Assembly: GCA_016181935.1 (NCBI GenBank)
Contig: JACOYI010000004.1
Location: 5,292 to 69,291 of the forward strand
DNA length: 64,000 nt
Direction: 5' to 3'
From: Candidatus Niyogibacteria bacterium
GTDB taxonomy: Bacteria > Patescibacteriota > Minisyncoccia > HO2-45-28
Shown here: piece by piece, positions 44,927 through 48,145 of the stretch
How the letters are laid out: every line of letters begins with the position of its first letter
Position numbering within the stretch: the first letter of the stretch is position 1
Made by a program: the position numbers and the translations under genes
Notes under the pieces: generated by a model
The model's database searches: none
The model's input: the letters and a program-made list of their open reading frames with translations, nothing else
What the model was told of the DNA's origin: nothing

Positions 44927-47900
44927 CTAGAGCGGATTCGGAGATGTGGTGGAGGCGCTGCACCCGGCACCGCAAACGATTGAATACTTTCCAATCGCCT
45001 CAATGTCGAGACGGTTTTCTGAAAACGAAACATTTGAAATCGTCGTTGTTGCGTTGATGACTGAAAGACCGACATTGACCGAACCCATGACGGATCCCCC
45101 TTCAAGCATCAGCGAACCGCCGATCACCCGAAGACCGTTTGAATTATTCGCAAACGCGCTTCCGAAAATGATTCCGTTTCCGTTTTCAATCAAAACGCCG
45201 TAAGAATCTCCGCCTTCGCGATTATTGCGAAATGTTGATCCGGCTATATCAACCGGCGCGCCGTTTATCAAGTGGACGCCGTGCTTCATCGAATATTCAA
45301 CGGCGACATTCCGGAATAAAACCGCGGCTCCGTCCACGATCACCGCCGCACGGCGAAGCATGTTGGAATACCATCGCCCGCCGTAACGGATCACGACATT
45401 TTCCAATGCCGAGTTTACGCTCGTTGGACTGAAATAAATTTGCTTCCAAGAACCAATGTCGGGACACGCCGCCGTGGATGATGCATTGGATGGATCGCAT
45501 ATCCCGTCGCCATTCATATCGCCGCCATATTCGTCGTCCGCGAGACCGGTAAATATGATCGGCTCCGACGCACTGCCGATGGCGCGAAGCGTCCCCAAAA
45601 CGCCCAAGGTCGGCGCGCCGGATGGATTTGTCATTTTAATAACAACGCCCGGCTCGATCGTGAGCGTCACGCCGGCCGCGACCGTTATCGTATCAGCAAC
45701 CAAATACGGGGAGTTTTCTTTGGTGAGCGTTTTATCGGCCGTCAGCATGGAACCGTTCGCGATTTCATAACTGATGCTGTTGCGCGCTTTTGGCGTTCCG
45801 TTGATTTGCGCCCCGCCGGCATCATTTCCGTTTTTTATCAGCGTGTTGTTTCGCCCCCAATTCGCACAATCATTGCCGGATGCATTTGCATCATAGCGTT
45901 CCATGGTCCAAAACCATGGCGATTCGAGACCGGCACACCAGCGACCCCGCGGACCTAATGTCCCAACCTCATCCATCGTCGTTGTCGCCGCGCCGTCAAA
46001 ATATTCAAGAAACAATTTTTCGCCTCCGTTTTCGAGACCCGACCCGTTCCCGTTTCCGCTAAACGGCGCGATCAGATTCGCCGTAATATCGCTGACCGTG
46101 TCATCGTCCGTACGCTCGATCAAATAAAATCCCTTTGCTGGAATGATGCCGTCGAGTTCAATGAACGGCACGCCATCCGCCGCGCGGATAAACCAATGAT
46201 CGAGCGGAATGTCTATTCCTGTCGGATTATACAGCTCGATCCATTCGTCGGCGGACGATGTCGCGGTACCCATCCATGCGATCTCGTTAATGACAACGGG
46301 ACGCGCTGAAACCTCCACCGTTTTTGAAATCGCCAAACCGTTTCCGACCGCATCAACTGCTTGGACCGTGAATGTATACAAGACCCGATCGCTTACAGGA
46401 ACGACGACCGCCGCTGATGATGTTGCGATGATCTGCGGAAAACCGGAGCATGCCGTACCGGCGGTCTCGCATGCAATTTCAAACCGCGCGAAGTCCGGCG
46501 CGTCCGATGATGCAACAAGCGTTACCGTTGTCGTTGCGATCAAACATCCGGAAGACGAAAATGACGCCGCACATTCGAGAATTTCGAATGTAAAATCCGG
46601 CGGCACGTTTAGCGGCGGCGTGGATGTTGCCGCTTCTTCCGTTGAAGTCGCGGACTCTAGTGTCAACGGCGCGGCAATTTCATCTGTTGCTGTAGTAATA
46701 GAAGTATCCGCGGTTCCAGCTTGTCCGCCTAAATTTTGCTCAGTAAACTTTTGGCGCGGCGCCTCGCCGCCCGCGCCTGCAGAACCCGCAGGAATCGCAA
46801 TCAAACCAAACGAGTCACGAAGCGGTGGGTTCGGCGTGCTCGCCGTAAGCGAATTCGGATCGTAGCTGGAATCCATGACAATAGTTCCCGCTACCGCATC
46901 TCCGCTGTAAATAAGAGGTTCGACCTCAAGATTGCTGAGAGGTCGAACCTCGGAATTTGAGTTCAAAGGTTTAACCTCGTCTGTTCCTGAGGTCAAACCT
47001 TGGCGGTCGTCTGGTGATTGTGAACTTGGAAACCGAGTTTCCAAGTCGTTAGAATTCCCCAAATCCTCCGGTGTTACACTTGAACCATAAAGCGCGGCGG
47101 TAATGTTAAAAATGCTGTCGCGCGAGGCATCAAAAATTTTCTGAAACCATGTGCGGTTTTTCAAATAAAGCGCCTTTGTCTGTTTTTCCTTTTCAACCTT
47201 ATCAAAAAACAACTTGATGACTCCGGCGCCGTGAAGAACGGCCTGTTTAGAAAGTCGGGACCAGTAGTCGGAGAGGATGAGGTTGTCATTATCTTTTAGT
47301 TGCGGCCTCTCATCGCCTATCGAGGTTCTCCATTCTTCATTAATTGGCATCAAAGCTAATTTATATTTGCTATCTTTCGAATCTCGGTACGCAAACCTAT
47401 AGACTTGACCATCACTTAAAATCTCTTTTTTAAAAAAATCTACTGTCGGAGATGTATAGTTTGGAGAAAAAATCGTATCTTCGCTGAAAAAATTACCGTT
47501 CGAGTATGCGGCGAGATTTCCAAAATAATCTTCGAGTGAATTGAGTAGAGTTGGCTTACTATTTCCGATGCCAACTAACTCAAATCCGTTCTCAAATTTT
47601 TCGGTCCAGTGTTCGTATGGGCTTCCCCAATCAAGGATTGACGGATGCGGGTCGTTGCGCGTATGATCCGGCACGCTCGCGTCCTGAATCAAATGCAAAA
47701 TATGTCCGAGCGTCTCAAGTCCACGATTTTTGTCACGCCACGCGTATTCGTAGATCGCGCGCTCCCATGAAAAATCATCCTCGGTCGAAAAAAGCTCCTT
47801 GATGCCGCCCGCCCCAACCGCCGCAAGACCCCCTTGCTCAATGGTCGCTTCGGCCCATTCTTTGGAGCTCGAAAATCCAAAAAGTCCGCGCTCGTACACG

Positions 47901-48145
47901 GGGTCATAGAAATGATGCATAAACCGCGCGCCGTCATCCTCTTCCATGCTTCCCTGTTTCATAAGCGCTTTTGCGCCGTCATCCAGTTTGAGTGCTGAAA
48001 AATGACTGTTAAAGAAATCAACCGTTTCGTCGGTCAATGCTGCATGCGTCCCAACTCCATATGCAAATAGAAAAGACGGCCACAACAAAATTGTTGTGAC
48101 CGCGTAAATAAAGAGGCGCTTGATTACATATCGTAAATCTTCCAT
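44927..48145 (-). CDS. large secreted protein: Zn-dependent PLC / S1-P1 nuclease-like domain + lamin-tail domain + parallel beta-helix
   Basis: 1072 aa; signal peptide; GTHAAL...HILHLIQDASVPDHTRND histidine pattern; mid LTD (VVINEIAWMGTATSSADEWIELYNPTG...HWFI); C-terminal beta-helix repeats. Confidence 0.7.
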   Translation of the reverse strand: MEDLRYVIKRLFIYAVTTILLWPSFLFAYGVGTHAALTDETVDFFNSHFSALKLDDGAKALMKQGSMEEDDGARFMHHFYDPVYERGLFGFSSSKEWAEATIEQGGLAAVGAGGIKELFSTEDDFSWERAIYEYAWRDKNRGLETLGHILHLIQDASVPDHTRNDPHPSILDWGSPYEHWTEKFENGFELVGIGNSKPTLLNSLEDYFGNLAAYSNGNFFSEDTIFSPNYTSPTVDFFKKEILSDGQVYRFAYRDSKDSKYKLALMPINEEWRTSIGDERPQLKDNDNLILSDYWSRLSKQAVLHGAGVIKLFFDKVEKEKQTKALYLKNRTWFQKIFDASRDSIFNITAALYGSSVTPEDLGNSNDLETRFPSSQSPDDRQGLTSGTDEVKPLNSNSEVRPLSNLEVEPLIYSGDAVAGTIVMDSSYDPNSLTASTPNPPLRDSFGLIAIPAGSAGAGGEAPRQKFTEQNLGGQAGTADTSITTATDEIAAPLTLESATSTEEAATSTPPLNVPPDFTFEILECAASFSSSGCLIATTTVTLVASSDAPDFARFEIACETAGTACSGFPQIIATSSAAVVVPVSDRVLYTFTVQAVDAVGNGLAISKTVEVSARPVVINEIAWMGTATSSADEWIELYNPTGIDIPLDHWFIRAADGVPFIELDGIIPAKGFYLIERTDDDTVSDITANLIAPFSGNGNGSGLENGGEKLFLEYFDGAATTTMDEVGTLGPRGRWCAGLESPWFWTMERYDANASGNDCANWGRNNTLIKNGNDAGGAQINGTPKARNSISYEIANGSMLTADKTLTKENSPYLVADTITVAAGVTLTIEPGVVIKMTNPSGAPTLGVLGTLRAIGSASEPIIFTGLADDEYGGDMNGDGICDPSNASSTAACPDIGSWKQIYFSPTSVNSALENVVIRYGGRWYSNMLRRAAVIVDGAAVLFRNVAVEYSMKHGVHLINGAPVDIAGSTFRNNREGGDSYGVLIENGNGIIFGSAFANNSNGLRVIGGSLMLEGGSVMGSVNVGLSVINATTTISNVSFSENRLDIEAIGKYSIVCGAGCSASTTSPNPL

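Follow-up and report, generated by a model that had tools for sequence, protein, structure and literature searches.

Parcubacteria have genomes of about 0.5–1 Mb, yet they spend 3–4 kb on one large gene. What this gene provides is the question raised by a locus in the 64,000-nt stretch of DNA analysed here (the window), which was taken from contig JACOYI010000004.1 of a Candidatus Niyogibacteria bacterium. The locus contains a genuine open reading frame (ORF) of 1072 residues, which is initiated by ATG and occupies exactly 44927..48145 of the minus strand in the ORF listing of the window, with the stop codon counted in. The encoded protein was 100% identical to the NCBI entry HYT22_01930 (P0241), a "hypothetical protein" of a Candidatus Niyogibacteria metagenome-assembled genome (MAG). 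An earlier note on this DNA, made from the sequence alone, had described a secreted 1072-residue protein from an organism with traits of the candidate phyla radiation (CPR), and both descriptions stood. The ORF is as described and its product looks exported, with a signal-peptide-like N terminus, and the window is bacterial and of CPR (Patescibacteria) type, with rpoB, rpoC, uvrA and groEL all present. We put at about 0.6 the probability that the protein is the large subunit of a surface module encoded by two genes and spread across the Parcubacteria lineage (Paceibacteria-type Patescibacteria).

Fold and putative metal site of the N-terminal domain

The N-terminal domain (residues 29–356; 47078..48061, minus strand) was assigned by an AlphaFold (AF2) model, Foldseek and profiles as a divergent, putative tri-zinc phosphodiesterase domain of the phospholipase C (PLC)/P1 nuclease superfamily. 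When the N-terminal 356 residues were searched alone, no match was found in Pfam, NCBIfam or the PDB sequences. A search for homologues of this part gave 132 matches, all from Patescibacteria-type MAGs and all named "hypothetical". Database labels for proteins carrying this head are either that or "lamin tail domain-containing protein", and the catalytic head is unannotated in current databases. A precomputed annotation with PF00882 (Zn_dep_PLPC) was present on a few head homologues, and this family matched 30 of 69 homologues at E ≤ 0.1, with a best E of 4.4e-6. When the family profile was compared with the PDB, Bacillus cereus PC-PLC was found at E 0.006.

The head was modelled on the alignment of the 69 homologues with a predicted local distance difference test (pLDDT) value of 91.3. 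The best 16 Foldseek matches of this model in the PDB were Zn-PLCs and alpha-toxins throughout, with template modelling scores (TMt) of 0.64–0.67. B. cereus PC-PLC (2huc) was at the top (E 1.3e-4, TMt 0.65), and Listeria PlcB (8cqm) and clostridial alpha-toxins were also among them; the model thus places an all-alpha PLC fold in the head. S1/P1 nucleases (3w52 and 3sng) were matched only at E 1.4–2.5, with TMt of 0.37–0.39. The head family was aligned by hhalign with PC-PLC (1AH7) at 93.6% probability and with P1 nuclease (1AK0) at 5–7%, using comparison sequences confirmed to be identical to 1AH7 and 1AK0. In the list of Pfam families for the 69 homologues, neither S1-P1_nuclease (PF02265) nor Het-C appeared.

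Together, these comparisons indicate that the head is very probably a tri-zinc phosphodiesterase of the PLC/P1 superfamily and, by sequence profile and predicted structure, clearly closer to the PLC branch than to the S1/P1 nuclease branch. Membership of the S1/P1 nuclease family itself was ruled out by the hhalign probability, the Foldseek values and the missing PF02265 listing. The head was not filed under PF00882 because the Pfam model and one ligand position fail; it is a new, deeply divergent family within the superfamily, nearest to bacterial Zn-PLC. The earlier note had read a PLC/S1-P1 nuclease-like fold from a His/Asp zinc pattern. The family profile, the AlphaFold model and the conservation of the ligands agree with it: the profile and the model gave a PLC fold rather than an unrelated one, the His and Asp residues were conserved among the 69 homologues, and the choice that the note had left between Zn_dep_PLPC and S1-P1_nuclease was tipped towards PLC by the profiles and Foldseek.

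The head was characterized by the motifs THxxLT, EDxxxR, HFYDP and LGHILHLIxDASVPDHTRNDPHP...SPYE, a three-stranded sheet insert (residues 237–267) and a long C-terminal helix. Residues H34, D70, R74, W97, G147, H151, D155, P159, R163, D165, H167 and E178 were invariant in the 69-sequence alignment, and Y29, H78, D81, H148 and H161 were conserved at 90% or more. Residues H78 and H161 were invariant among 56 full-length homologues. In a permissive hhalign comparison, 215 columns of the head were aligned with PC-PLC at 92.5% probability. The side-chain zinc ligands of PC-PLC, which are H14, D55, H69, H118, D122, H128, H142 and E146, were paired in seven of eight cases with conserved residues of the target, namely H34 with H14, D70 with D55, H78 with H69, H151 with H118, D155 with D122, H161 with H128, and E178 with E146. 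The C-terminal helix was aligned as well, with AGVIKLFFD of the target facing AGYIQLWFD of PC-PLC. Residues H151-x3-D155-x5-H161 form an HxxxDxxxxxH motif, which aligned with H116/D120/H126 of P1 nuclease and is common to the whole PLC/P1 superfamily. The invariant residues Arg74 and Arg163 adjoin zinc ligands.

Predicted export signal and C-terminal scaffold

At the N terminus of the target, a basic n-region leads into a hydrophobic helix of 18 residues (residues 4–21), after which comes LFA↓Y. A signal peptide was predicted for residues 1–28 (48062..48145, minus strand), with Tyr29 as the mature N terminus. The segment that follows the hydrophobic helix (residues 23–29) was of low confidence in both AlphaFold models. 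Among the 56 full-length homologues, the xFA↓Y site had Ala, Gly or Ser at position −1 and a nearly invariant Tyr at position +1. The first His ligand was located five residues past this Tyr in the target and six in most homologues. From these sequence features we infer Sec export and signal-peptidase cleavage at A28↓Y29, and the signal is probably removed. In PLC and P1 nuclease, the amine and carbonyl groups of the mature N-terminal Trp serve as ligands of the third zinc. Cleavage at A28↓Y29 would likewise free the alpha-amine of Tyr29, which as the counterpart of this Trp1 might complete the third zinc site; a ligand role for Tyr29 is conjecture. At the C terminus, neither a transmembrane segment nor a sortase motif was found, and the surface anchoring proposed in the earlier note is at most an inference.

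The head is followed by a disordered, acidic linker rich in Ser, Thr, Ala, Gly and Pro (residues 363–510; 46616..47059, minus strand), which had a pLDDT below 50, an isoelectric point (pI) of 4.05, and the lowest conservation and alignment occupancy in the target. The next domain was an Ig-like beta-sandwich (residues 515–612; 46310..46603, minus strand), modelled as all-beta with pLDDT above 90. It contains the invariant residues Cys525 and Cys534, and weak matches of Big_13 and fn3 type were found both in the target and in homologues.

The lamin-tail domain (LTD; residues 613–790; 45776..46309, minus strand) has the core motif VVINEIAWxGT..DEWIELYN. PF00932 matched residues 614–693 with E 5e-8 and 33.6–33.8 bits against a cut-off of 34.3, and a precomputed match (PF00932.26) was present on the identical NCBI protein and on nearly all homologues. 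This region was modelled as an Ig-like beta-sandwich with pLDDT above 90, and the central LTD of the earlier note was thus recovered by the Pfam match, the precomputed matches and the model alike.

The C-terminal part forms, in the model, a right-handed parallel beta-helix (residues 791–1072; 44930..45775, minus strand) of stacked short strands with pLDDT above 90, the strands lying at about residues 800–1060. A calcium-loop-like motif, DDEYGGDMNGDG, was carried by this domain. Beta_helix (PF13229) matched residues 935–1061 below its cut-off, with E 1.8e-3 for the whole protein and 8.7e-5 for the C-terminal segment. PF28492 (Beta_helix_4) was precomputed for the identical NCBI protein and was also found in homologues, most of which carried PF13229 or PF05048. 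The beta-helix of the target is one module shorter than that of most homologues, with about 197 residues missing at residue 1046, and the conserved C-terminal end ...TSPNPL was retained. No frameshifted or downstream remnant of the missing module was found in the window.

When the whole 1072-residue protein was searched directly against NCBIfam and PDB sequences, no match was found. The full-length AlphaFold model had a pLDDT of 79, with a disordered linker and a confidently folded C-terminal half. The Foldseek matches of this model were generic only, to tandem beta-sandwich adhesins (SiiE and RbmA), an ice-binding adhesin, AlgG and polygalacturonase. The C-terminal parallel beta-helix that the earlier note had proposed was confirmed by the PF13229 and PF28492 matches, the model, and the resemblance to AlgG and polygalacturonase.

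Partner gene, distribution and neighbourhood

The target gene is one half of a two-gene module, the other half being a gene directly upstream on the same strand (48124..48597, minus strand). The earlier note had missed both this partner gene and the conserved neighbourhood. The partner gene encodes a 157-residue protein in which an N-terminal transmembrane helix precedes a putative extracytoplasmic domain of NTF2-like (DUF4878-like) type. Searches by tblastn located a counterpart in the same position and orientation in 81 of the 83 related loci, and the remaining two lacked upstream DNA. The conserved core of the partner is DTYGGxTPEETLxLFIDALKKGDxxLASKYF. The partner of the window matched DUF4878 with E 3e-4 and 21.5 bits against a cut-off of 24.1, and 21 of 56 partner orthologues matched this family at E ≤ 0.01. 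The partner family profile was also matched to de novo NTF2 designs at E 0.0035–0.02. By these profile matches, the partner is a putative membrane-anchored NTF2-like protein.

The two genes share a dual-coding overlap of 22 nt (48124..48145, minus strand), in which the stop codon of the partner lies over the start of the target (A-ATG-GAA-rAT...TAA). In the junction alignment, the overlap encodes ...WKIxxL/M and the stop in the partner frame, and MEN/DxRxx in the target frame. The near-invariant "MEN" start of the large protein is due to this dual coding with the C-terminal 'WKI' strand of the partner. The window and 62 of 80 loci had an overlap of exactly 22 nt, and 3 loci had one of 28 nt; the lengths in the remaining loci probably reflect start codons misassigned by the simple calling rule. 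The 22-nt overlap was kept across proteins that are only 36–50% identical, and the junction illustrates cleanly how a gene overlap can be conserved over a long range.

In a marine orthologue of 736 residues that occupies the equivalent place in the synteny (P0236, from GCA_002327585.1 and from a marine metagenome; 5001–7211 in loci L084 and L085), both the PLC domain and the beta-helix were missing. Its signal peptide, Ig-like repeats and LTD were still present, as were the partner gene (E 1e-50) and the 22-nt overlap. Because the partner was kept without the PLC domain, its role is not tied to the enzyme head, and it is not simply an inhibitor of the head.

The earlier note had called the domain combination uncommon, and this did not hold, as the protein belongs to a large conserved Parcubacteria family. 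In a scan of one genome per species, at least 579 species-level genomes among the 600 pattern matches listed encoded a relative with the N-terminal domain. A profile search of 1.84 billion representatives (50% identity clusters) gave 7305 matches at E ≤ 1e-3 and 1065 at E ≤ 1e-30, and in the best 150 of the 7305 the head was located at the N terminus of the protein. More than 100 of the clusters examined were full-length (about 1000–1500 residues). These numbers rule out an uncommon architecture for this lineage. In a full-length search, all 116 new proteins among the 120 listed had the N-terminal domain, and most were 1100–1400 residues long. The named source lineages included Niyogi-, Sung-, Lloyd-, Kaiser-, Giovannoni-, Campbell-, Vogel-, Wolfe-, Yanofsky-, Harrison- and Brennerbacteria. 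Two family copies were present in some genomes, such as L024 and L077 in the MAG CAYHJX01, and P0014 and P0105 on one 11.7-kb contig, the latter three gene positions apart by locus tag. No paralogue of the target was found in the window.

Upstream of the partner, Pfam identified a Y1_Tnp/RAYT-like gene (48660..49385), a TPR protein (49497..50216) and a 1211-residue PG_binding_1 giant protein (50414..54049), all on the minus strand. The same upstream gene order was found in complete genomes of Niyogibacteria, Sungiibacteriota and Campbellbacteria, where a giant protein of about 1200 residues (with PG_binding_1 where annotated) is followed by, sometimes, a TPR gene, then a Y1_Tnp-like gene and a gene of about 160 residues that overlaps the start of the large gene. 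Of the 83 loci, roughly one in three shares this neighbourhood, a conservation of gene order that may or may not reflect a functional link to the target. The Y1_Tnp (IS200/RAYT-like) gene has an intact HFH motif and a YIHLNP motif. About 27 of the 83 loci, drawn from different classes of Parcubacteria, had it in synteny just upstream of the partner, with counterparts at 5803–6513 in L001, 5775–6455 in L002 and 5674–6366 in L003. In its behaviour it is more like a domesticated single-copy gene than like a mobile element. In the 1211-residue giant, PG_binding_1 (residues 87–138) was the sole recognisable domain; the protein showed strong conservation (tblastn E = 0), and in at least 25 loci it was found in synteny with the module. 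A membrane glycosyltransferase of the PMT_2 family (GT39-type, protein O-mannosyltransferase-like) is encoded nearby (55239..56972, minus strand), and it is speculation that it could glycosylate Ser/Thr-rich linkers such as residues 363–510 of the target.

On the downstream side, an ORF of 160 residues without a Pfam match (44493..44975, minus strand) shares 49 nt with the 3' end of the target; it is probably spurious or begins at a later codon. The next recognisable genes on this side encode an HTH_3 regulator (44067..44438) and, further on, an HhH-GPD glycosylase (42903..43571), which is syntenic in several relatives too. A promoter and terminator scan around the operon gave no more sites than shuffled sequence. 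Elsewhere in the window, a 23S rRNA match (32374..35985, minus strand) spanned 3612 nt against a model of 2925 nt, which corresponds to an insertion of about 690 nt, and a LAGLIDADG homing-endonuclease ORF of 161 residues (PF00961, E 1e-22; 33200..33685, minus strand) lies within this gene. No 16S gene adjoined the 23S gene, and a 5S gene was located at 31258..31363.

Possible roles and comparison with known systems

In the mechanism that we favour, the two proteins would be made together by translational coupling, and the membrane-anchored partner probably retains or organises the otherwise anchorless large protein at the cell membrane. The Ig–LTD–beta-helix part would reach outward on the flexible acidic linker and bind a polymer or a foreign cell surface, and the zinc domain would hydrolyse a phosphodiester bond in host- or environment-derived material. 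The preferred substrate would be a glycerophospholipid, cut in the manner of PLC into diacylglycerol and a phospho-headgroup. Homology favours this type of cleavage. A phospholipid is a tentative choice that falls somewhat short of even odds; a nucleic acid is an unlikely substrate, and a different polymer with phosphodiester bonds (teichoic acid or a phosphoglycan, for example) is more unlikely still.

Several observations weigh against this reading. The head lacked a Pfam match even at E ≤ 10, and its assignment rests on profiles and predicted structure. The PC-PLC ligand His142 was paired with Gly174 of the target; the invariant residue His167, paired with Asn134 of PC-PLC, could replace it as a candidate ligand. 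In the same permissive alignment, Tyr29 was paired with Glu9 of PC-PLC and not with Trp1. The choline or headgroup pocket of PC-PLC, formed by Glu4, Tyr56 and Phe66, was not retained: the Glu4 segment was missing, Tyr56 was replaced by the non-conserved Asp71, and Phe66 corresponded to Phe75, which is Trp in the consensus. Thr65 of the headgroup pocket was replaced by the invariant Arg74, so choline is probably not the headgroup that the enzyme prefers. The lost choline pocket and the presence of Arg74 and Arg163 beside the zinc ligands suggest a substrate without choline, possibly an anionic one. In the marine orthologue, partner, synteny and 22-nt overlap persist in the absence of both the PLC domain and the beta-helix. 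Finally, homologous LTD and beta-helix scaffolds were fused to ComEA-type HhH (HHH_3) domains in four proteins and to SNase in one, and these fusions fit a role with nucleic acids at least equally.

The last observation leads to an extracellular nuclease, in which an S1/P1-like head would act on single-stranded DNA or RNA, the LTD and beta-helix would capture nucleic acid, and the products would feed a nucleotide-auxotrophic organism. The catalytic chemistry and the HxxxDxxxxxH motif are common to P1 nuclease, and the predicted mature aromatic residue of the target is five residues from the first His, as in Trp1–His6 of P1. Invariant Arg74 is located four residues past the ligand Asp70, and P1 nuclease has Arg48 three residues past Asp45. 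This role is nevertheless unlikely, given the hhalign probability of 5–7% for P1 against 93% for PLC, the poor Foldseek values for S1/P1 and the absence of S1-P1_nuclease from the listed Pfam families. Every domain of the target is also strongly acidic (pI 4–5.3), though this is no guide to a lipid or a nucleic-acid substrate, because S1/P1 nucleases are acidic too. An LTD is found in the nuclease ExeM, where, however, it is dispensable for DNA degradation in vivo (PMC6085458). Bacterial LTDs were also reported alongside oligosaccharide-binding domains (PMC6085458), which would suit a phosphodiesterase of wall or capsule glycopolymers (teichoic acid or phosphoglycan of a host or neighbour cell), with the beta-helix binding polysaccharide and the zinc domain cutting. 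The resemblance of the beta-helix to AlgG and polygalacturonase, the NosD- and pectate-lyase-type Pfam matches in homologues, the two invariant Arg residues beside the zinc ligands, which suit anionic substrates, and the giant PG_binding_1 protein in conserved synteny are all in keeping with this. We know of no PLC/P1-superfamily enzyme that cleaves teichoic acids, and the beta-helix may be a mere structural stalk or adhesin, which makes a glycopolymer enzyme quite doubtful.

Rather than feeding the cell, the pair could form an effector and its immunity protein, with a PLC-like toxin attacking membranes and the NTF2-like partner shielding the membrane of the producer. The two genes are strictly adjacent, and polymorphic toxin systems are reported to include both Imm-NTF2 immunity proteins and PLC/P1-related Het-C toxin domains (Zhang et al. 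2012, PMC3482391). However, the partner is an upstream gene that is conserved and not polymorphic, the module occupies a conserved chromosomal neighbourhood beside housekeeping genes, and the pair with its overlap persists in the marine orthologue, where the PLC domain is lost. A simple toxin–immunity pair, in which the partner would be expected to co-vary with the PLC domain, is accordingly improbable. The same orthologue, which functions without the enzyme head, and the matches of the C-terminal half to the giant adhesins SiiE and RbmA and to an ice-binding adhesin would fit a structural adhesin or surface-layer component, the PLC-like domain serving as a non-catalytic lipid- or phosphate-binding module. 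This, too, has little chance of being right. All seven matched ligand positions were invariant or nearly so in dozens of homologues, within a family of thousands of clusters, and such conservation across a large family is the pattern typical of an active enzyme.

The favoured reading, a surface module with a PLC-like head, can be extended to a lipid-harvesting device, in which the beta-helix/LTD arm would dock on a host cell, the tri-zinc head would cut host phospholipids to diacylglycerol, and the partner would pass lipid to the membrane of the symbiont. Parcubacteria are thought to lack lipid synthesis, and the NTF2-like fold often forms a hydrophobic cup; the PG-binding giant encoded nearby would help to breach or hold the host wall. 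This extension is a long shot. More broadly, the module is probably central to obtaining building blocks or holding partners, because at least 579 species-level genomes keep the large gene together with its partner. The Parcubacteria that carry it are uncultivated and presumably host-dependent cells, for which the recognition of a tri-zinc phosphodiesterase gives an assayable hypothesis of lipid, nucleic-acid or wall-polymer scavenging. The module is lineage-wide, its chemistry is of a familiar type, and the gene pair is usable as a lineage marker.

In the literature searched, of which coverage was incomplete, no description of this PLC-headed LTD family in Patescibacteria or the CPR was found. 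The combination of a PLC-like head on an Ig–LTD–beta-helix scaffold, an obligatory NTF2-like partner and a 22-nt overlap is new as far as that literature goes, which is not proof of novelty. The pairing of an LTD with a phosphoesterase is itself a known theme, such combinations being attributed to Mans et al. (2004) in PMC6085458. The target shares with ExeM-type LTD nucleases and LTD–phosphoesterase fusions a secreted or envelope phosphoesterase joined to an LTD. However, its head is PLC-like and not of the EEP, metallo-beta-lactamase or calcineurin-like type, its LTD is central rather than N-terminal, and the beta-helix and the partner protein are added.

Het-C/Tox-HET-C, a described third branch of the PLC/P1 superfamily, is used as a secreted effector, and small NTF2-fold partners occur in toxin systems. 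The Het-C motif is HxxxDxxxH, whereas HxxxDxxxxxH of the target has five residues, not three, between Asp and His. Membership of Het-C was ruled out by this spacing, and Het-C was not listed among the Pfam matches. The partner of the target differs from Imm-NTF2 in being upstream, membrane-anchored, non-polymorphic and kept where the enzyme domain is absent.

When the target is compared with the S1/P1 nucleases (1AK0, S1, TBN1 and AtBFN2; PF02265), the superfamily, the tri-zinc chemistry and the HxxxDxxxxxH motif are shared. A mature N-terminal aromatic residue (predicted in the target) five to six residues ahead of the first His ligand and an Arg one helical turn past the first Asp ligand are common to both as well. 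The hhalign and Foldseek values given above (E > 1, TM 0.37–0.39) and the lack of a PF02265 listing for the homologues set the two apart.

The closest known systems are the bacterial Zn-PLCs (PC-PLC 1AH7, PlcB 8CQM and Clostridium perfringens alpha-toxin; PF00882). They have in common with the target the all-alpha fold, the seven aligned ligands, the HFYDP and HxxxDxxxxxH motifs, a homologous C-terminal helix, and export with a processed N terminus, which in the target is predicted. Alpha-toxin also resembles the target in having one or more beta-sandwich domains after the catalytic domain. However, the identity was only 14–16%, and the target has no PF00882 match. In the target, the N-terminal segment is shorter by eight residues, and the predicted mature end is Tyr where these enzymes have Trp. 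Relative to PC-PLC, the His142 position is not conserved, with His167 as the candidate substitute, the choline pocket is not kept, and the loop between Asp55 and His69 is six residues shorter and contains an invariant Arg. The three-stranded sheet insert, the 150-residue disordered linker leading to the Ig, LTD and beta-helix domains, and the obligatory NTF2-like partner gene are found in the target only.

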